A DNA stretch of 64,000 nt from a virus. The DNA lies in IMG/VR virus record IMGVR_UViG_3300032435_000001; one strand, written 5' to 3'. Position numbers and translations under genes: made by a program. Positions 31,761-64,000 of the stretch are shown in pieces; positions within the stretch are counted from its first letter, which is position 1, and each line of letters begins with the position of its first letter. Under the pieces are notes generated by a model. That model was not told the DNA's origin, did no database searches, and worked only from the letters and a program-made list of their open reading frames with translations.

Positions 31761-34163
31761 ATGTCTAGAGTAGAAAAAGATAATCTAGGTTTTTTAGGTG
31801 AGGACTATCAGTTAAGGCTGATAGCTCAACTAATAACTGATAAAAAATTCGCTAACGATATATTAGACATTATAGATGTTAACTTTTTTGGTGATGAATA
31901 CCTAAAACTAATAGCTGTTGAGATTAAAAATGCTTATAATACTCATCAAGTTATACCAGACTTTGAAAGTTTAGAGTTTAGATTGAAAGAAAGATTAAGT
32001 AATACAATACAGAGAGACTTCGCAATAGGTCAGTTAAATAAAATCAAAGATGTTAACTATAATGATAGCTTCAAGGTTCAAGAAATAGCTATGAAATTCT
32101 GTAAGCAGCAAGCTTTGAAAAAATCTGTTTCTGAAATAAACGTAATACTAGAAAGAGGTGATTATGAGGAGTATGATGAGTGTGAGGTTATACTAAAGAA
32201 AGCACTTTCAGTTGGGGAAAATAAAGATTTTAGTATTCAATTAGATAATGATATTGATGGCGTTCTAGCTGACGACTTTAGAAACCCAATAGCGACTGGT
32301 ATTAAAGGTTTTGATGAATACATGAATGGTGGTTTAGCTAAAACTGAACTAGGGATTATATTAGCTCCTTTTGGTGTTGGTAAAGCTTTACCTAATTCAA
32401 ATAAAATTTACACACCAGAAGGGTTTAAGTTAATGGGGTCTATTAATGTTGGTGATAAAGTATTTGGTAGAAATGGTAAGGAGACAAATGTTATTGGTGT
32501 CTACCCACAAGGTATTCGACCAATATTCAAAATTACTTTTAATGATACTACCAGTACTTTTTGTGATGAGGAACATTTATGGGCGGTCAATTCTAATGAC
32601 CAACGTAATCACTCATCTTGTAAAGTTGATAACTCATTTAAAGTAGTTAAAACTTCTGAACTAATCAATAATTTAACTTTCGGGACTGGAAAAGATTTGA
32701 ATTTTAAAATCCCAATGGTTGAACCAATTGAGTTTAACGAACAAGAATTACCAATTGACCCATATGTTTTAGGTGTAATGCTACGTGATGGTAATATGAA
32801 GTCGTCTACGTTTACTAGTAAGGATTTAGAAGTTGTTAATGAGGTTAGTAGGTTAATGTGTGGTGTTATATCCATAAAGGAAAAATGTTTAGATATTGAT
32901 AAAGATGATGTCTTAGTTAAAGAATGTTTATCTCATGTTTCTATTCATGGTATTACCGATAAATTAAAATCGTTAAGTTTATATAATAAAAAATCTAATA
33001 ATAAATTCATACCTATTAGTTATCTTCATAATTCAAAAACTAATAGGTTAGAAATACTTAGAGGTTTGTTAGATGCTGATGGTAATGTGAATAAAAATGG
33101 TAGTATCGAGTACGTTAGCGTTTCAAAAAAATTAATTGATGATGTTAAATGGTTAGTATTATCTTTAGGTGGTTTTTGTGAATTATCTATCGGAACACCT
33201 AACTACAGTTACGATGGTGTTAAGAAGGTTGGTTGGGAAGCTTATGTATTAATCATATCATTCCCAAGTGAAAATAAAATAAAACCATTTAAATTAGCTA
33301 GAAAAAATGAACTTCTCATTACTGGGGGTATTTATAATAGCGGTAAATTTATCAAATCGATTGAATATTCACATAAAGAAGAAGCCACTTGTATAATGGT
33401 TGATAATGTGGAACAACTATTCGTTACTGACGATTTTATTGTTACACATAACACAACTATGATTACCAAGATAGCTAACAGTGCTCTAAATCAAGGTTTT
33501 AACGTTTTACAAATATTTTTTGAAGATAATGAGAAGGTCATACAACGTAAACACTACGCTTGTTGGACCAATATAGAGTTAAATGAGTTATCTAATCATA
33601 AAGAATTAGTAAAGAAAACCGTTATTAGTAATTTAGAAGCTGGTGGTGAACTTAGGTTGTTAAAAATGAATAGTGATAATATCACGATAGCTAAGATAAA
33701 ACTAATGGTTAGGAAATTAATAGCTAACGGTTTTAGACCAGACATGATTTTAATTGACTATATCGACTGTGTTGAACCATCAAGAAAAGTAGATGATACT
33801 AATGTTGGTGAAGGTAGAGTAATGAGAGAATTTGAAACCATGTTAAATGAGTTTGATATGGCTGGATGGACAGCAGTACAAGGTAATCGTTGTGTTGCAC
33901 TTGACACTAAGGTGGATATTGAGGGTAAAGGTACTATTGAGATAAAAGATGTGGTGTTAAATGATAAAATTTTAACTAAAGATGGTTACAAAATGGTATC
34001 ACATATTTTCCCAATTCAAAAGCAACCAGTGTATAAGATAAAATTAAAATCTGGTAAGGAAATTAAAGTGAGTAAAAAACATTTCTTCCCAACATCAGAT
34101 GGGGTTTTGAGTTCAATTGAAAGTGGTTTAAGTATTGGTGTTAAGTTACTAATTAAAAAATAA
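31761..34163 (+). CDS. Replicative helicase (gp41/DnaB-like), N-terminal fragment containing one full intein and ending in a split-intein N half
   Basis: IATGIKGFDEYMNGGLAKTELGIILAPFGVGK|intein|TT (Walker A), FFED, ILIDYID, WTAVQGNR|CVALDT...stop. Confidence 0.92.
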   Translation: MSRVEKDNLGFLGEDYQLRLIAQLITDKKFANDILDIIDVNFFGDEYLKLIAVEIKNAYNTHQVIPDFESLEFRLKERLSNTIQRDFAIGQLNKIKDVNYNDSFKVQEIAMKFCKQQALKKSVSEINVILERGDYEEYDECEVILKKALSVGENKDFSIQLDNDIDGVLADDFRNPIATGIKGFDEYMNGGLAKTELGIILAPFGVGKALPNSNKIYTPEGFKLMGSINVGDKVFGRNGKETNVIGVYPQGIRPIFKITFNDTTSTFCDEEHLWAVNSNDQRNHSSCKVDNSFKVVKTSELINNLTFGTGKDLNFKIPMVEPIEFNEQELPIDPYVLGVMLRDGNMKSSTFTSKDLEVVNEVSRLMCGVISIKEKCLDIDKDDVLVKECLSHVSIHGITDKLKSLSLYNKKSNNKFIPISYLHNSKTNRLEILRGLLDADGNVNKNGSIEYVSVSKKLIDDVKWLVLSLGGFCELSIGTPNYSYDGVKKVGWEAYVLIISFPSENKIKPFKLARKNELLITGGIYNSGKFIKSIEYSHKEEATCIMVDNVEQLFVTDDFIVTHNTTMITKIANSALNQGFNVLQIFFEDNEKVIQRKHYACWTNIELNELSNHKELVKKTVISNLEAGGELRLLKMNSDNITIAKIKLMVRKLIANGFRPDMILIDYIDCVEPSRKVDDTNVGEGRVMREFETMLNEFDMAGWTAVQGNRCVALDTKVDIEGKGTIEIKDVVLNDKILTKDGYKMVSHIFPIQKQPVYKIKLKSGKEIKVSKKHFFPTSDGVLSSIESGLSIGVKLLIKK
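32385..33452 (+). mobile_element. Class-3 (WCT) intein with LAGLIDADG endonuclease, 356 aa, in helicase Walker A
   Basis: Starts at Ala (ALPNS). Block B CDEEHLW, LRGLLDADG, block F ATCIMVD, ends VTHN followed by T. Confidence 0.9.
33891..34160 (+). mobile_element. Split intein N-fragment (90 aa)
   Basis: CVALDTKV block A and KVSKKHFFPT block B, followed by a stop codon. Confidence 0.9.
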
Positions 34164-34209
34164 TTTAATAATGTTTTAAAATGGTTAATAATAAAGGGTT
34201 AGAGTATGT

Positions 34210-34674
34210 ATGGAAGAACATAAATTAAATTTAGAAGATTTTGATTTAGATGAGATTGAAAGTATTGAGTTAATTGGTTATGAAGACACTATCGATATAA
34301 CAGTAGATGATACACATATGTTTTACGCTAATGATATTTATACGCATAATAGTTCAATTAAAGCTGAGGTTGTTGAGTCAGACCAAATGGGTGGTTCGAT
34401 TAAGAAAGCGCAAATTGGGCATTTCATAGTTTCAGTTGCTAGAAGTAATGAGCAAAAAGATAGTGGTCACGCTAATTTAGCAATACTTAAATCTAGATTT
34501 GGTAAGGATGGTATTGTGTTGAGTGATTGCATTTTTGATAATTCAAGAGTTCAAATTGAGATTGTTGAGCAAGAATCTAAAACGTTCTTACAAAATACTT
34601 TTGATAAAAATTCTAGGGATTTAGATAGGGTTAAGTTGATTATGGATGCTAGTAAGAAAATTAAAGAAAGTTAA
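34210..34674 (+). CDS. Split intein C-fragment (47 aa, 34210-34350) fused to the helicase C-terminal extein
   Basis: [21 protein letters not shown]|[28 protein letters not shown]...ILKSRFG. Confidence 0.92.
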
Positions 34675-35771: not shown

Positions 35772-38138
35772 ATGAAAGTAGTAAAAAGAGATGGTATTAC
35801 TAAAGAAGATGTGAACTTCAATAAAATTAGTACCAGAATTAAAAAATTATGTTATGGTTTAGACACATTATATGTTGACCATGATGAAGTCTCAAAAAAA
35901 GTTATAGATGGTCTTTATGATGGTGTTACAACTATTGAGTTAGATAGACTTGCATCTGAAACAGCTGGAGCTTTAGTATCCCACCACCCAGATTATTCTT
36001 TACTAGCTTCTAGAATTGAGATAACCGCATTACATAAAAGCACTGAGAAATTTTTCAGTAAGACAATTGAAAAATTATATTCCTATATAAATGATAAAAA
36101 TGGTAAACATTCACCATTAATTAGTGATGAGTTATATGAGGTTGTTAAGAAAAATACTAAAGTTTTAAATTCTGCGATTATAAACGATAGGGATTTTAGT
36201 TATGATTATTTTGGTTTTAAAACTTTAGAGAAGTCATACCTTTTAAAAATAGATGGGAAAGTAGTTGAAAGACCACAACACATGTTAATGCGTGTTTCTT
36301 TAGGTATTCATGGTGGTGATGTTGAATCAGCGATAGAAACGTATAACTTAATGAGTGAGAAGTATTTTACACACGCAACACCTACATTGTTTAACGCTGG
36401 AACACCAAAACCTCAAATGTCATCTTGTTTCTTATTAACGATGAAAAATGATAGTATTGAAGGTATTTATGATACTTTAAAACAAACAGCTTTGATTTCA
36501 CAATCTGCTGGGGGTATTGGTTTAGCAATACATAACATAAGAGCTACAGGTTCTTACATTGCTGGGACTAATGGGGTTTCAAACGGTCTAACACCTATGT
36601 TACGTGTGTTTAACAATACTGCTCGTTACGTTGACCAAGGTGGTGGTAAAAGAAAAGGTAGTTTCGCCATTTATATAGAACCCTGGCATGCTGATATCTT
36701 AAGTTTCTTAGATTTAAAAAAGAATCATGGTGTTGAAGATATGAGAGCTAGGGATTTATTCTACGCAATGTGGACCCCAGATTTATTCATGAAACGTGTT
36801 CAAGAGGATGGTGATTGGACTTTAATGTGTCCAAACGAATGTCCAGGTCTTGCCGATGTTTACGGTGATGATTTTGAGGCTTTATATAAATCTTACGAAG
36901 AAGCTGGTAAAGGTAAAAGAACTGTGAAAGCTAAAGAAGTTTGGTTAAAAATTCTTGAATCTCAAATTGAAACAGGTACACCATATATGTTATATAAGGA
37001 TGCTGCAAATAAAAAATCTAATCAGAATAATTTAGGTACGATTCGTTCTTCAAATTTGTGTACTGAAATTATTGAATACACTTCACCAGATGAGGTTGCT
37101 GTTTGTAATTTAGCATCAGTAGCTTTACCTAAATTTGTTGAGGTTAAGGATAGGAAAGCTAAAAAACTTGAATATGTGTTCAACCATAAGAAATTACATC
37201 AGGTTGTTAAGCTTATAACTATAAATCTAAATAAGGTTATAGATAGGAATTATTACCCAGTTATTGAGGCTGAGTATTCAAATAAAAAACATAGACCAAT
37301 TGGGTTGGGTGTTCAAGGGTTAGCTGATGCGTTTCAAATAATGGGGATTCCTTTCACATCTAAGGAAGCTAAAGTTTTAAATGCTGCTATTTTTGAGACT
37401 ATGTATCACGCAGCCATGGAATCTTCCATGGAATTAGCTAAGGTAGATGGTCCTTATGAGACATTTGTTGGGTCAATGACTAGTAAGGGTACTTTCCAAT
37501 TTGATTTATGGGATGAACCTATTTTTAGTGGTATGTACGATTGGGATAAGTTAAAGAAAGAGGTTGTTGAGAATGGTATCCGTAACTCACTTTTAATGGC
37601 CCCTATGCCGACTGCTAGTACTTCTCAAATACTAGGGAATAACGAAGCATTCGAACCTTATACTACGAATATTTACACTAGACGTGTGTTATCAGGTGAA
37701 TTTATTTGTGTAAATAAACATTTAATTTTGACATTAATAAATTTAGGTTTATGGGATGACGAAATGAGAGATAGGTTAATGATTAGTAATGGGTCGATAG
37801 CTAATTTTACTGACATCCCTGAAAATGTTAGAGATATTTATAAAACTGTTTGGGAAATTTCACAACGTGATGTTATAGATTTATCAGCAGATAGAGGTGC
37901 GTTCATTTGTCAATCTCAATCTATGAATATATTTATGGATAACCCAAATTTCCAAAAATTAACCAACATGCATTTCCATGGTTGGAAGAAGGGTTTAAAG
38001 ACTGGTATGTATTACCTTAGAAATAAACCAGCTGTTGAAGCTATTAAATTCACTATCGACAAGACGAAATACGTCAAAGAGGATAAAGAGTTTTCAGCTG
38101 AAAATTCGGAATTTGATTGTGATAATTGTGGTTCATAA
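35772..38138 (+). CDS. nrdA: Ribonucleotide reductase class Ia alpha subunit with ATP-cone
   Basis: VVKRDG ATP cone, [37 protein letters not shown] and C-terminal CDNC. Confidence 0.97.
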
Positions 38139-40536: not shown

Positions 40537-40866
40537 ATGAGTTGTTGTAAAAGTAATGTGGATTCACCATTGGATGGTGAAAAAGAAAGTATATTAAGTA
40601 GAGTTATTGTTTTTATTGTTACCTTATTTTTGCTAACTATATTAACACCATTTTTTTGGTTAATTGGGGTCTATTTTATATTTAATAGTTTTATTCTTAA
40701 TAAGAATAACACCATCATACCTTCCATGATTTTTTTATATAAAATTATTAATAAAAATAAAGATAAAGAAAATTTAAATGATGATAATGAAATTGAGGAT
40801 ATTGATATTGACAATGTAGATAACTACGAGTTAATGGATTATCAAATGGTTGATGACGATGAGTAA
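40537..40866 (+). CDS. Small membrane protein
   Basis: Long hydrophobic stretch (VIVFIVTLFLLTILTPFFWLIGVYFIF), acidic tail and MSCC N-terminus. Confidence 0.65.
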   Translation: MSCCKSNVDSPLDGEKESILSRVIVFIVTLFLLTILTPFFWLIGVYFIFNSFILNKNNTIIPSMIFLYKIINKNKDKENLNDDNEIEDIDIDNVDNYELMDYQMVDDDE

Positions 40867-43800
40867 TATTAGGATAAAAACGGATGTAGGTGTTGATAAA
40901 TATCTAAAGGTTAATTTGGAACAAGATTTCGATTTTCTTGAGATATTATCATTAAAGTTATCCCAAGAAGATGTTTATAGGCGTTTTAACTCTGATTACG
41001 GTGTTGTAGTTGGTAGAGTTATCGTAAACAATGGTTTGGGTGTACCTAACGCTAAAGTATCCTTATTTATACCTTTAAATGATTCTGACTCGGAAGAGGT
41101 TAAAAGTTTATATCCATTTAACACGGCTAATGATGAAGATTTTGATGGTGTTAGGTATAATCTTCTACCAAAAGACTATCAAGGTGATTGTCACACACCA
41201 GTAGGTACGTTCCCAAAAAAGAGAGAGGTACTTGATAATAATATTATTTTTGAGGTGTATGACAAGTACTATAAATTCACGACAACAACTAATAACGCTG
41301 GTGATTTTATGTTATTTGGTGTACCAGTTGGTAATCACATTATAAATATTGATGTTGATTTATCGGATATTGGTCAATTCTCACAAAAACCTTATGATTT
41401 TATCGAACAAGGTAACCCAGAAAATTTATTCAAATCATCTACCGTGTTTCTAGGTAGTAAAAATCTAAATTCCCTAACTCAACTTAAAAACCAAAAAGCA
41501 GGTGTCAATATAATACCATTTTGGGGTGAAGAGGGTGAGATTGGTATAACTAGAATTGATATGGATTTAAATTATAATTTAGTACCATCAGCAATATTTG
41601 TCGGTAGTATTTTCGGTGATAATGAGAAAAATTCACTTAATAAAAATTGTAGACCTAGAAAAGATTTGGGTAAATTATGTGAGACGGTATCCGCTTCGGG
41701 TACTATTAATATGATTAGGAAAGATATTGATGGTAATACTCAAAAATTTGATGTTTCTGGTGGTAATTTAATTGACGAGTTCGGTGCTTGGGCTTACCAA
41801 ATACCTATGAACTTAGATTATGTTGTTACCGATGAATTTGGTGAACTTATTCCTAGTGAGGACACCAATAAAGGTGTACCAACTAGGGCTAAAGTTAGAT
41901 TTAAAATCGGTATGGATGATACTGGTGGCGAAGGTAGAATTAGAAGTAGAGCTAAGTTTTTAGTCCCTCATAACCCAAAAACTGCTGATGATATTGATTA
42001 TAATTTTAATAGTGACACTAAAAGTAATAACTTTACTGATTTATCTTGGAATAAAATATACACAGTTAGAAACCATATAACTAGAATACAATCTGCTTGT
42101 TCAGGTGGTTGTGCTGATAACAGAAGAATGATTGGGGTTAAAGATGTTGATGATTGTGTTGGTAATAAAAACCCATTCCCATTTAATAAGTTAGATGGTG
42201 ATTTCAACCCATTATTCTTAATAATATGTTTAATAGTGGGTATTATTTTAATGATTTTAGAGTTAGCAAACAGAGCTTTTAGTCTTATCACTAGAGTTAG
42301 GTTGTTTGGGCGTGTTAGGTGTGTAGCTTTAGATTGTGATGGTGTTAAGTACGCACCAGGTTGTAGCGGTAGTCGTGCAAAACCTGATGGTACTAAAAGT
42401 ACATCAAAAGATGCTTTAGAAGAGTGTTATAAAATTCAACTTGCTTCAGCTTTAAATATTTTTGAGTTTGATTTTTATAATGATTGGGTTAACGGTACAT
42501 TATTTTCATTTTTATTAAAATATAAAAAAAAGAAGAATAATGAGAAATTCTGTAGTGTTGATGTAAGTGAGGATAGTTACATTGTTGACACTTTAATTAA
42601 TGGTAATTTAAAAAACCACGCTAGTGAAAAAATATATAAGGGGTTCATTAAAAGTTTTAAGGGTGAATTATTTTACGCCCCATATGATAAGGATAGAGAT
42701 TACATTTTATACGCAACCGATATAACTTGCTTAGGTGCTATTAATAAATGTGATTGGGAAGGTAAACCTAGTTTTCACGAATACTTACTACCTACATCAT
42801 ATAAGATACCACCATTAACTAATACAGATGAACCTAATGTATCTAAATTGGCTGATAGTAATCCCAATAGAGGCCTGTTATTTACATTTTCATGTACTAA
42901 GCTTAATGCTAGTGATAATCAGATGAGTAATATAAGAAGGTTATGTGAGATTGGTGTTGGTCTAGATGAAGATAGAAATGATGAACCTAATGGTGTTTCT
43001 AAAAATAATAGTATTGGTGATGAAGACATTGATAACCAATTTGTTAGGGATTGTTTAATTGTCTCAAATTCAAATACTTTATCTTTAACGACTACAGGTT
43101 TAAATAGTGGTTTTAATGGTTCACATTATAAAAATTATAGAGATTTTGGTAAAAGAACTGTAAAGCAAGCTAGGGGTAATTCGTTCTATATGTATTTTGG
43201 TACAGCACCAAATAATAGCGCTATTGATAAGATGAACGCTAAATATTTTACTAGTTGTGAACAAGTAGTGGAAGATGAGTTTATAATTGAGGGTGTGATT
43301 AGTGATGTAACGTATTTAGGTGGTAATGATGGTAGTATAAATATCTCAATAATCGATGGTTTCGAACCATTCACATATCTTTGGAGTAATGGTGAGATTA
43401 CTGAGGGGGTATCTAATTTAACCGCTGGTGAGTACACCGTTAGCGTTACCGATGATAATGGTAGTGTTGTTAAAAAGACGTTTATAGTTAGCCAACCAAA
43501 ACCAATTAAGGTTGAAATCGTGGTAAATACCACTAGAACCCCATTAAGTAGTGATGGTACATTAACTTTAAGTTCGATTATTGGTGGTAATGGTAATTAT
43601 TTTGTAACAATAGTGGGCCCAACAAATAACCCAACTACACAAACAGTTAATAACCCAATACCCAATTTCACATTTACTGGGTTGGCGAGTGGTACATATA
43701 CCTTAACAGTCGTTGATACTAGTAACGTACCTTTGACTTATAACAGTGTTTTTGAGATATTAAAACCGCCTAAATTAGAGACCACCATAACATTTACATC

Positions 43801-44614
43801 GCCAGAATGTTACGCACCTGATTATGATAATGATGCCGAAATTAATATTCGAATAAACGGTGGGATACCACCATATTTAGTACAAACTGTTGGACCAACT
43901 TTTGTGAATGAAAGCGGTGGTACTGAAACATATTCATCAACATTAATGAACCATCTTTCGTTACCTAGTGGCACCTTTTCTATCACTATAACAGATTTAT
44001 TTGGTCAAGTGGTTACTGGTTCTGGAGCTATAGTAATGCCAACAGCTTTAAAAATTAGGTTTTATGAGATTAAGGTAATAACTCTACCATCTCGAATTTC
44101 TATTATGTCAAGTAATGCATTAGCTAACTTTTTAAATGCTCAAAATTCTGTACATGATTTAAGTAATCAACATATAGATTATTATTTCAGATATAGTTAT
44201 TTTCCTGGTGGGGTTCTAAGCGGAATGGGACATGCTTTCCACAAATTCATACCAAATTCGGTTAGTGGGTATGGTGTGTATGGTGGTAATGGGTTAAATT
44301 TCGATGAATCTAATTTTGAAACTATAGCAACTAATGAACAATCAAATTTTATTATAGATAAGAGGAGAATCAGTATTACCTCACCCCGTGCTGGGCAACT
44401 TAATGGGTTTGGGGATGGCGAGAAATTTGATGTATTTAAGGTCGGTTCAAGTGTTAAACTCTATGAGTTTACGATAGGTATTGTATATAATTTTGACACT
44501 AATTCTTTCCTACGGGTATATTCATTCCCACCGAATGGTCTAACCGCTGGTGATAAAGCATACCTTGTGAGTCATAGGGATGGGTGTGAATCAAATGAAA
44601 TAACAATTTACTAA
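40859..44614 (+). CDS. Large structural protein with carboxypeptidase-regulatory-like domain, Cys-rich core and SprB-like repeats
   Basis: GRVIVNNGLGVPNAKV...TNNAGDFML. Later NDGSINISIIDGFEPFTYLWSNG....SNLTAGEYTVSVTDDNG plus two divergent copies. Confidence 0.7.
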   Translation: MSNIRIKTDVGVDKYLKVNLEQDFDFLEILSLKLSQEDVYRRFNSDYGVVVGRVIVNNGLGVPNAKVSLFIPLNDSDSEEVKSLYPFNTANDEDFDGVRYNLLPKDYQGDCHTPVGTFPKKREVLDNNIIFEVYDKYYKFTTTTNNAGDFMLFGVPVGNHIINIDVDLSDIGQFSQKPYDFIEQGNPENLFKSSTVFLGSKNLNSLTQLKNQKAGVNIIPFWGEEGEIGITRIDMDLNYNLVPSAIFVGSIFGDNEKNSLNKNCRPRKDLGKLCETVSASGTINMIRKDIDGNTQKFDVSGGNLIDEFGAWAYQIPMNLDYVVTDEFGELIPSEDTNKGVPTRAKVRFKIGMDDTGGEGRIRSRAKFLVPHNPKTADDIDYNFNSDTKSNNFTDLSWNKIYTVRNHITRIQSACSGGCADNRRMIGVKDVDDCVGNKNPFPFNKLDGDFNPLFLIICLIVGIILMILELANRAFSLITRVRLFGRVRCVALDCDGVKYAPGCSGSRAKPDGTKSTSKDALEECYKIQLASALNIFEFDFYNDWVNGTLFSFLLKYKKKKNNEKFCSVDVSEDSYIVDTLINGNLKNHASEKIYKGFIKSFKGELFYAPYDKDRDYILYATDITCLGAINKCDWEGKPSFHEYLLPTSYKIPPLTNTDEPNVSKLADSNPNRGLLFTFSCTKLNASDNQMSNIRRLCEIGVGLDEDRNDEPNGVSKNNSIGDEDIDNQFVRDCLIVSNSNTLSLTTTGLNSGFNGSHYKNYRDFGKRTVKQARGNSFYMYFGTAPNNSAIDKMNAKYFTSCEQVVEDEFIIEGVISDVTYLGGNDGSINISIIDGFEPFTYLWSNGEITEGVSNLTAGEYTVSVTDDNGSVVKKTFIVSQPKPIKVEIVVNTTRTPLSSDGTLTLSSIIGGNGNYFVTIVGPTNNPTTQTVNNPIPNFTFTGLASGTYTLTVVDTSNVPLTYNSVFEILKPPKLETTITFTSPECYAPDYDNDAEINIRINGGIPPYLVQTVGPTFVNESGGTETYSSTLMNHLSLPSGTFSITITDLFGQVVTGSGAIVMPTALKIRFYEIKVITLPSRISIMSSNALANFLNAQNSVHDLSNQHIDYYFRYSYFPGGVLSGMGHAFHKFIPNSVSGYGVYGGNGLNFDESNFETIATNEQSNFIIDKRRISITSPRAGQLNGFGDGEKFDVFKVGSSVKLYEFTIGIVYNFDTNSFLRVYSFPPNGLTAGDKAYLVSHRDGCESNEITIY

Positions 44615-62766: not shown

Positions 62767-64000
62767 ATGGCGAAAATTGAGAAAAGTATGGTCTATTTAG
62801 AACCAATAGAACATGTTTATATTCATAGGGAGAGTGGAAAGCGTTTCACATCGGTAACCAAAGTTCTATCTTCAATAGAACCTCATTTCGAGGGTGATAG
62901 AATAGCTGGTAATATCGCTAAACAATCAGACTCAAACCCAAAAAAAAACCCAGCTTATATTGGGATGAATAAAGAACAAATATTAGATTATTGGCAAGAG
63001 TTGAATGACACTGCTAATATATACGGTACTATGGTTCATGAAATAGTTGAGAGATATCTATTAGCTAATAAAATGTATTTCACTAGCGACCCTTTTGAAT
63101 TGAAGGTGATTAAAGCTTATGAAGATTTAGAGGTTGATGAAGGTATTGAAATATACCCAGAGAGGATTATGTTTTCAGAAGAGTACGAATTAGCTGGCAC
63201 TGCTGATTTAAAGATTGATATTAATGAAACATACTTTGATATTGGGGATTGGAAAGGTTTACCAATAGACACACCAATATTCACTAATAATGGTTGGAAA
63301 ACTATGGCTAGCTTATCACATGGTGATAAAGTTTATGATATGGATGGTAAATTATGTGATATTTTACATTTTTCCGAAATAAAAAATAAAGATTGTTTTG
63401 AAATTGAATTTGATAATGGTGAAGTAATAATATCTGACCATGAGCATAGATGGTTGGTTTCATTTATGCGTAGTGGGAATTTAACTGATAAAGTTATGAC
63501 ATCAGAAGAATTATTTGAACACACTAATAAGTTAGGTACTAAAAGATGGTCATATAAAATACCTAAGGTTAAAATATGTAAAGCTTTGGATAATCAACAC
63601 ATTGATTTACCTTTAGACCCTTATTTATTGGGTGTTTGGTTATGTGATGGGGATAAAGATATTACCAAAACGATAATCGTTGATGAAAATGTTTGGTTAG
63701 AATTAAATTTGGTAAATGATAAACGTATACCAGATACATTTTTTATGTCATCATATGAACAACGTGTGGGTTTATTACGTGGGTTTATGGATGTTAATGG
63801 TCATTATAACAAGTCACGTAAAAGATTTGTTATGTCAACAACTATAGAGTGGCAAGGAAATGAATTTAATAAGTTAGCGTCTTCACTAGGTATTAAAACA
63901 ACTGTTATTAAATATAATAAAAAGGTTAATGGTGAAATTGTTGACGTAATTGATATTTGCTTTAGTACAGATAATTTAAACCCATTTTTAAGTAAAGAGG
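62767..64000 (+). CDS. PD-(D/E)xK (Cas4/RecB-like) exonuclease containing an intein, truncated by the window end (absent from the ORF track)
   Basis: Manual translation: MAKIEKS...TSVTKVL...GTMVHEIVE...PERIM...LAGTADL...IGDWK|GLPIDTPIFTNNGWKTM... Confidence 0.85.
   Translation, partial: MAKIEKSMVYLEPIEHVYIHRESGKRFTSVTKVLSSIEPHFEGDRIAGNIAKQSDSNPKKNPAYIGMNKEQILDYWQELNDTANIYGTMVHEIVERYLLANKMYFTSDPFELKVIKAYEDLEVDEGIEIYPERIMFSEEYELAGTADLKIDINETYFDIGDWKGLPIDTPIFTNNGWKTMASLSHGDKVYDMDGKLCDILHFSEIKNKDCFEIEFDNGEVIISDHEHRWLVSFMRSGNLTDKVMTSEELFEHTNKLGTKRWSYKIPKVKICKALDNQHIDLPLDPYLLGVWLCDGDKDITKTIIVDENVWLELNLVNDKRIPDTFFMSSYEQRVGLLRGFMDVNGHYNKSRKRFVMSTTIEWQGNEFNKLASSLGIKTTVIKYNKKVNGEIVDVIDICFSTDNLNPFLSKE
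63256..64000 (+). mobile_element. Intein (Gly-1, probably class 3) with degenerate LAGLIDADG motifs, partial
   Basis: GLPIDTPIFTNNGWKTMASLSHGDKVYD block A, SDHEHRW block B, LDPYLLGVWLCDG and LLRGFMDVNG. Confidence 0.85.

Follow-up and report, generated by a model that had tools for sequence, protein, structure and literature searches.

How can a replicative helicase be produced from a gene that is broken into two open reading frames (ORFs) and, in addition, carries two inteins? This question is raised by a stretch of 64,000 nucleotides (nt) from the virus record IMGVR_UViG_3300032435_000001 in IMG/VR (hereafter, "the window" means this whole stretch), where two adjacent plus-strand ORFs, 31761–34163 (gene 1) and 34210–34674 (gene 2), encode the parts of a helicase of the gp41/DnaB type. 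Judging from the anatomy of the gene, its motifs and homologues, the series of alleles found in relatives, the purifying selection and a co-folding model, all of which were observed or computed here, this replicative helicase gene contains two inteins and is fractured at the second of them, and the split allele probably works. The first-pass annotation of the window had described one full intein and one naturally split intein with no endonuclease ORF between its halves, and both the ORF scan and the sequence agree with this description.

The two ORFs are composed as follows (all features lie on the plus strand; the slash in a motif marks the insertion point of an intein). Gene 1 encodes 800 amino acids (aa). 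Its first segment, N-extein 1 (31761–32384; 208 aa), is the N-terminal part of the helicase up to the Walker A motif FGVGK, and is followed by intein 1 (32385–33452; 356 aa), which contains a LAGLIDADG endonuclease domain and is classified below as a cis-splicing intein of class 3. The middle extein (33453–33890; 146 aa) is the ATPase core up to AVQGNR, in which the Pfam DnaB_C domain occupies residues 565–710 of the gene 1 ORF. The gene 1 product ends with the N-terminal half of intein 2 (IntN; 90 aa; 33891–34163 including the TAA stop codon at 34161–34163), so that its tail reads AVQGNR/CVALDT...LLIKK. An AT-rich spacer of 46 nt (34164–34209), in which no ORF, terminator or significant hairpin was found, separates it from gene 2. 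The gene 2 product (154 aa; starting with MEEHKLNL...) consists of the C-terminal half of intein 2 (IntC; 34210–34350; 47 aa) and the C-extein (34351–34674 including the stop codon; 107 aa), which are joined at YANDIYTHN/SSIK.

Do the three exteins make up one helicase? In the closest relative among the 43 viral contigs surveyed, L005, the helicase is uninterrupted and 461 aa long, and the exteins of the window also sum to 208 + 146 + 107 = 461 aa once both inteins are removed. The virtual spliced product and the L005 helicase can be aligned without a gap through both junctions (FGVGKTTMITK and AVQGNRSSIK), with identities of 90% in the N-extein, 81% in the middle extein and 87% between the C-extein and the C-terminal 107 aa of L005. 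A hidden Markov model built from intein-free helicases matches the gene 2 ORF with an E-value of 1e-50. Among solved structures, T4 gp41, the "DnaB-like replicative helicase" (8due/8dtp), matches the L005 helicase best over the full length. Thus, the positions of the ORFs, the sizes of the intein halves and the spacer, and the 461-aa product with restored motifs, as given in the first-pass annotation, were all reproduced.

The next point is whether the break between the two ORFs is real. Contiguous alleles of the same intein exist (represented by L020–L029), and an error of assembly or sequencing in a gene with such a contiguous mini-intein might in principle mimic a fracture. However, gene 1 and gene 2 lie in different frames, the gene 1 frame is closed by the stop at 34161, and the gene 2 frame has four stops within the spacer (34177, 34186, 34189 and 34192). 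Because the frames differ and these stops precede gene 2, a single insertion or deletion cannot join the two ORFs, as the first-pass annotation had also argued. Moreover, nothing corresponds to the 46 nt in the contiguous alleles, where the linker has only 4–5 codons; both ORFs of the window are found without a single difference on 6 contigs of three origins (JGI, Logan and ENA); and homologues with short spacers are present in independent metagenomes (L001, L003 and L004, which have identical spacers and come from three different samples, as well as L011, L012 and L034). An artefact is extremely improbable in the light of these findings. The exact 154-aa product of gene 2 gave no record in a lookup of encoding contigs.

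A genuine break might instead be overcome in translation: a ribosomal frameshift or a bypass over the spacer would yield a single-chain precursor that splices in cis. This idea has a footing in L011, whose two ORFs overlap by ATGA and are thus one frameshift away from a single chain. In the window, by contrast, the ribosome would have to bypass 46 nt with stops in all three frames, and neither a slippery run nor a significant RNA structure (z = 0.68) is found in the spacer. We rejected a joining of the window ORFs by frameshift or bypass on account of the stops in all frames, and among the explanations considered here we regard recoding as the one with the least chance of being correct.

We then consider what the sequences flanking the break are. 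Residues 3–89 of IntN match the gp41-1 intein (6qaz) with an E-value of 3.7e-13, and IntC matches residues 89–128 of the same structure with an E-value of 6e-4. In addition, more than 400 database proteins of 84–270 aa are similar to the gene 2 product, that is, to IntC plus the C-extein. These matches to gp41-1 and the abundance of proteins resembling gene 2 argue that the fracture pattern is not due to chance. The two halves flank two parts of one conserved protein encoded on separate ORFs, in an order collinear with the uninterrupted homologue, and no free-standing homing endonuclease gene lies between them. The residues expected of a class 1 intein are all present: Cys1 (33891), His64 in the block B motif SKKH (34071–34082), the terminal His46-Asn47 and Ser+1 (34351). 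They are invariant or nearly so in 15–18 alleles; among 15 alleles, neither Cys1 nor the His of block B varies, and the 12 residues at the end of IntC are the same in 15 split alleles and in three contiguous ones. These class 1 residues are kept whether an allele is contiguous, bears the endonuclease or has a short spacer. From its sequence, intein 2 is classified as a class 1 split intein (90 + 47 aa) inserted at QGNR/S.

Between the window and L011, which has the nearest allele and is also free of the endonuclease, the ratio of nonsynonymous to synonymous substitution rates (dN/dS) is 0.14 for IntN and 0.12 for IntC, values indicating purifying selection on both halves. The split inteins of these two loci are 81–84% identical, while their N-exteins share only about 50%; conversely, L005, with its 90% identity in the N-extein, has no intein. 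Since the intein is near that of L011 and the extein near that of the intein-free L005, the intein has a history of its own, as expected of a mobile element. By sequence comparison, the split intein of the window appears to form a distinct subfamily, about as far from gp41-1 as from gp41-8.

The two halves carry opposite net charges, +7 for IntN and −14 for IntC. When IntN and IntC were co-folded, the pair obtained a score of 0.93, as compared with 0.00 for the best control; the contacts agreed to at least 99% between runs, and the partner had a predicted local distance difference test (pLDDT) value of at least 90. The mark applied to such models is reached by 58 of 80 solved complexes and, among 110 mismatched pairs, by 2. 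Structures of gp41-1 and of further split inteins are known, so that the pass may express a likeness to solved inteins, short of a proof that this copy binds.

Such complementarity of charge and a confident co-folding would fit simple dimerisation equally well, and the halves might accordingly associate without splicing, leaving the helicase as a non-covalent enzyme of two chains. However, the residues that are invariant or nearly so (Cys1, the His of block B, the His-Asn end and Ser+1) have a role in the splicing chemistry only. Furthermore, 137 extra residues inside a conserved helicase motif would probably interfere with the enzyme. A two-chain helicase is for these reasons highly unlikely, and trans-splicing of intein 2 remains the preferred reading.

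Intein 1 interrupts the P-loop at GVGK/T. Its first residue, Ala1 (32385), directly follows GVGK and is thus not Cys, Ser or Thr. The Trp-Cys-Thr triplet (WCT; B:12, F:4 and G:5) is complete: the motif EEHLW (32568–32582) holds His B:10 and Trp B:12, the motif ATCIMVD (33384–33404) holds Cys F:4 (residue 544 of the gene 1 ORF), and the intein ends with THN (at 33452) before Thr+1 (33453) in the junction THN/TT. Ala1, H-x-W, the Cys and THN/T are invariant in five homologues whose overall identity is only 45–53%, and the spacing of EHLW, A-x-C-I-x-x-D and THN equals that of the mycobacteriophage Bethlehem DnaB intein (MP-Be). Class 3 inteins are defined by the lack of an N-terminal nucleophile, the WCT triplet and Ser/Thr+1, and are usually located in the P-loop of helicase-type ATPases (PMC2807308). 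Intein 1 can also be aligned to the structures 6rix and 6riy (MchDnaB1) and 6bs8 (MsmDnaB1), which have been identified as class 3 DnaB inteins (PMC7664689). It is therefore assigned to class 3 by its motifs. Pfam detects LAGLIDADG_3 (E-value of 3.5e-8) and Hom_end_hint in intein 1; the endonuclease domain sits between the splicing lobes, and both LAGLIDADG motifs, ...GVMLRDG (32760–32792) and LRGLLDADG (33057–33083), are intact.

The resemblance of intein 1 to the mycobacteriophage and mycobacterial class 3 inteins of DnaB (MP-Be, PMC2807308; MsmDnaB1; MchDnaB1) comprises the missing N-terminal nucleophile, the triplet at B:12/F:4/G:5, Thr+1 and the P-loop position after GK. MP-Be also has an endonuclease domain, while its first residue is Pro instead of the Ala found in the window. 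A further difference concerns the N-terminal splicing lobe of intein 1 (32385–32600), which matches the class 1 intein gp41-1 (6qaz; E-value of 6.3e-8) slightly better than the mycobacterial class 3 structures (E-value of 1e-6). This is relevant to the origin of class 3 inteins, either by divergence from class 1 inteins of phages or by convergence, the latter being argued in PMC7664689.

Based on these features, the following maturation is proposed. Gene 1 would give a precursor composed of the N-extein, the class 3 LAGLIDADG intein, the middle extein and IntN, and gene 2 would supply IntC with the C-extein. Intein 1 would leave the Walker A loop in cis; in the class 3 chemistry, the block F Cys would attack first, and the N-extein would then pass to Thr+1. 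The basic IntN and the acidic IntC would associate and carry out class 1 trans-splicing by means of Cys1, the terminal Asn and Ser+1, by which ...QGNR would be joined to SSIK... to give the 461-aa helicase. The first-pass annotation had spoken of two splicing chemistries in this gene, and this wording, with class 3 for intein 1 and class 1 for intein 2, is more apt than its contrast of cis- with trans-splicing.

As for the expression of the two genes, their co-transcription is plausible, since the spacer shows neither a terminator nor a significant structure and since the A/T-rich leader of gene 2 is like those of the other window genes. These genes lack Shine-Dalgarno leaders, their leaders being only A/T-rich, and a Shine-Dalgarno site considered for gene 2 was dropped for this reason. 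Promoter-like matches in the spacer are no commoner than in shuffled sequences.

How did the gene come to be fractured without an endonuclease? Information on this point was obtained from the state of the QGNR/S site in the 43 viral contigs. The site is empty at 7 loci, and at 11 loci it carries a contiguous mini-intein with a linker of 4–5 residues. At 18 loci, the gene is split around an ORF of 355–422 aa (about 1.2 kb), whose C-terminus is of the Vsr-like DUF559/MTES_1575 type. At 6 loci (7 with the window), it is split with a short spacer: 66 nt in L001, L003 and L004, an ATGA stop/start overlap in L011, 332 nt in L012 and 245 nt in L034, as compared with 46 nt in the window. In a quick tree of modest support, the short-spacer alleles occur at no fewer than four places of the intein tree, three of which adjoin endonuclease-bearing alleles. 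Broken remnants of the DUF559 endonuclease with in-frame stops were detected in two of the spacers: that of L012 (338–669; E-value of 2e-19) keeps the N-terminal part, and that of L034 (5756–6000; E-value of 1e-16) keeps the C-terminal catalytic part. At least L012 and L034 thus arose through decay of the endonuclease gene, and the sequences thus support well a loss of the endonuclease in this lineage.

The opposite transition also left its mark. The DNA of the helicase genes is 90–94% identical between L024 (2280–4031) and L013 (3417–6460), and 91–97% identical between L020 and L016. In both pairs, an 11-nt linker segment in one gene corresponds to a 1.3-kb cassette in the other; the cassette brings a stop codon, the gene of the DUF559 endonuclease and a new start codon from which IntC is read. 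The intein 2 lineage has flipped repeatedly between the cis and trans forms in helicase genes of 90–97% DNA identity. The two pairs look like natural before-and-after states of an endonuclease invasion into a mini-intein. In L011 (5984–6015), the overlapping IntN stop and IntC start leave the two chains one frameshift apart. It was also found that the combination of a class 3 cis-intein with a split class 1 intein in one helicase recurs in other metagenomic phages, without the endonuclease in L001, L003, L004 and L011, and with it in L008–L010 and L049/L050.

In the model of Dassa et al. 2009 (PMC2677866), the loss of the endonuclease is step III. By analogy with steps II and III of this model, an endonuclease gene would earlier have split a contiguous mini-intein of the window lineage, and the 46-nt spacer would most likely be the remainder after the deletion of this free-standing Vsr-like (DUF559) homing endonuclease gene. 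The spacer is similar to the final codons of the endonuclease ORFs, which lie at the homologous position, a similarity matched equally by 12–13 of 300 shuffled sequences, and residues 1–12 of the window IntC are common to endonuclease-bearing alleles and missing in contiguous ones. The spacer may thus be a scar of the 3′ end of the lost gene, as these faint sequence traces hint. A tblastn search with endonuclease proteins returned nothing for the 46-nt and 66-nt spacers, which are too short for it, and a comparison of the window with L011 and L005 gave no clear signal of a co-conversion tract around the split-intein site. The lost endonuclease proposed in the first-pass annotation is well supported in the relatives, by the remnants in L012 and L034 and by the allele series, and only weakly in the window itself, by the spacer similarity and the shared N-terminal extension of IntC.

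Is the split allele functional, or is it a relic? After an invasion by the endonuclease, the gene could have become a decaying pseudogene, with replication being carried out by another phage helicase outside the window or by the host DnaB. A search of the 64-kb window and of five related records, none of which is complete, turned up no further DnaB-like gene; an intact helicase elsewhere, which the first-pass annotation had named as a refutation, was thus not seen within this scope. The scope is limited in turn by the size of the genome: the full genome is probably about 350 kb, as extrapolated from the CheckV completeness of related records, and the completeness of these records is 10–46%. 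Decay is nevertheless hard to reconcile with the catalytic intein residues and the helicase motifs, which are all intact, with dN/dS values of 0.12–0.14 for the intein halves between two endonuclease-free alleles, and with the occurrence of the split form in hundreds of database proteins. A pseudogene is accordingly very unlikely, and a working split allele is the reading that we retain.

Several points weigh against that reading. First, the helicase search spans only 64 kb of a genome of probably about 350 kb, so that a second helicase may exist elsewhere in it. Second, the nearest relative of intein 1 has an identity of 53%, which is too distant for gauging recent selection on this intein. 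Third, the exact spacer sequence is absent from the two collections of viral and metagenome contigs searched, and about 4% of shuffled sequences reach the similarity observed between the spacer and the endonuclease ends, which leaves a lost endonuclease in the window weakly supported. Finally, the splicing of either intein, the order of the steps, the co-transcription and the deletion history of the window are what we infer from the locus.

Comparison with known systems places the locus more precisely. Dassa et al. 2009 (PMC2677866) described gp41 genes of phages that are fractured and carry split inteins as well as Vsr-like endonucleases, and the relatives of the window likewise carry a Vsr-like (DUF559) endonuclease. 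Among the loci of that study, gp41-7 is the closest parallel: its gp41-type helicase is encoded by two adjacent genes with IntN and IntC, and no endonuclease gene lies between them, which the model of that study explains by the loss of a free-standing endonuclease. The window differs from it in four respects. The inteins gp41-1 to gp41-7 share the gp41-1 insertion point (SGY/SSS), while that of the window is NR/S; the window belongs to another phage lineage, its helicase being only 24–28% identical to the most similar ones of cultured phages; gp41-7 keeps an upstream hairpin, and the window has no significant one; and the window gene also holds a second intein, of class 3.

The first-pass annotation had likened the split intein most to gp41-8, and this holds in part. 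The junctions of gp41-8 and gp41-1 are LNR/SAY and SGY/SSS, respectively (supplement of PMC7090010), and from its own junction GNR/SSI the window is seen to share the insertion point of gp41-8. The half sizes are also close (about 88–89 + 45 aa in gp41-8; 90 + 47 aa in the window), and IntN is basic and IntC acidic in gp41-8 and gp41-1 as well (polarity from PMC2677866). The IntCs of gp41-8 and the window are identical at 21 of 38 positions, and the IntNs at about 47% in a by-eye count against the sequence in the supplement of PMC7090010. On the other hand, the overall identity does not exceed about 47%, an endonuclease intervenes and a primase lies upstream at the gp41-8 locus, and the IntC of the window has a longer N-terminal extension. 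The best solved match of both halves is gp41-1 (6qaz) rather than gp41-8, for which no structure exists. The block B motif S-x-x-H and the C-terminal ...FYANDI.THN/S are common to gp41-1 and the window; the insertion points are, however, about four residues apart in an alignment to T4 gp41, that of gp41-1 lying downstream, and the identity is about 40–45%.

Two inteins in one helicase gene are also known. In bacterial DnaB, a P-loop intein occurs together with one at a second site, as in M. smegmatis with DnaBi1 and DnaBi2 (PMC6195587) and in the joint occupancy of sites b and a (PMC4760082). The window resembles these genes in having a P-loop intein and another intein in a downstream conserved ATPase motif; it differs in that both bacterial inteins are contiguous, while in the window the second intein is divided between two genes and lies after Q-x-N-R. 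Given the endonuclease-free gp41-7 and these double inteins, the novelty claimed in the first-pass annotation was overstated. In the literature searched, no helicase was found to be reported with both a cis-intein of class 3 and a split intein of class 1; the locus is still a combination of known parts.

What, then, does the locus offer? It is a clean natural case of an enzyme essential for replication whose maturation most likely requires two splicing events of different mechanism, one of which takes place between two polypeptides. When the relatives are included, all stages of the gene-fracture model of 2009 can be seen at a single site: empty, with a contiguous mini-intein, fractured by the endonuclease, with the endonuclease in decay, with a short scar, and with overlapping stop and start codons. 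The IntN/IntC pair of the window is about 45–55% identical to the widely used tools gp41-1 and gp41-8, which makes it a sensible candidate for a further orthogonal pair in protein ligation; hundreds of similar pairs are present in metagenomes, and no new principle is involved. The "gated" helicase activity and the use as a ligation reagent, both put forward in the first-pass annotation, are speculation. The more far-reaching idea that the inteins are not neutral parasites but an ordered, condition-sensitive maturation switch for the helicase, in which class 3 cis-splicing in the ATP-binding loop would be combined with a class 1 trans-splicing dependent on both gene products, and that the window pair could in addition serve as a new reagent for fast ligation, orthogonal to gp41-1 and gp41-8, seems to us unlikely.

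The surroundings of the helicase gene identify its source as a large, AT-rich, uncultured aquatic myophage. The adjoining genes include a RecA/UvsX-like gene and a 5′–3′ exonuclease gene; two further neighbouring ORFs are probably NrdB and NrdA, as read from their own sequences and from the ribonucleotide reductase genes that relatives have in this position. The phage also has a tail sheath gene, and the content of guanine plus cytosine is 30%. The large size is deduced from the low CheckV completeness of related records (30–46% for those of 105–161 kb) and from relatives reaching contigs of 296–315 kb. When GenBank phages were searched at the DNA level, nothing resembling the helicase gene was found. 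An ORF of 1254 aa at 40850–44614 gave weak matches resembling SprB repeats and Por secretion tails, which hint at a Bacteroidota host for the phage.

Two observations on possible further inteins may be added. An ORF at 62767–63999 (plus strand), which continues past the end of the window and encodes a nuclease-like protein, contains a candidate third intein: the sequence ...FDIGDWK is followed by GLPIDTPIF..., a motif HEHRW provides His, x, Trp as in block B of class 3, and weak matches to LAGLIDADG_3 and Hom_end (E-value of 0.008) are found. With Gly as its first residue, it may be another intein without an N-terminal nucleophile. The NrdA-like ORF of the window (35772–38138; 788 aa) has an ordinary length and shows no sign of an intein, and in the 315-kb relative (L049/L050: 5506–8562) the large subunit of ribonucleotide reductase encoded beside the helicase also holds an intein with a LAGLIDADG domain.

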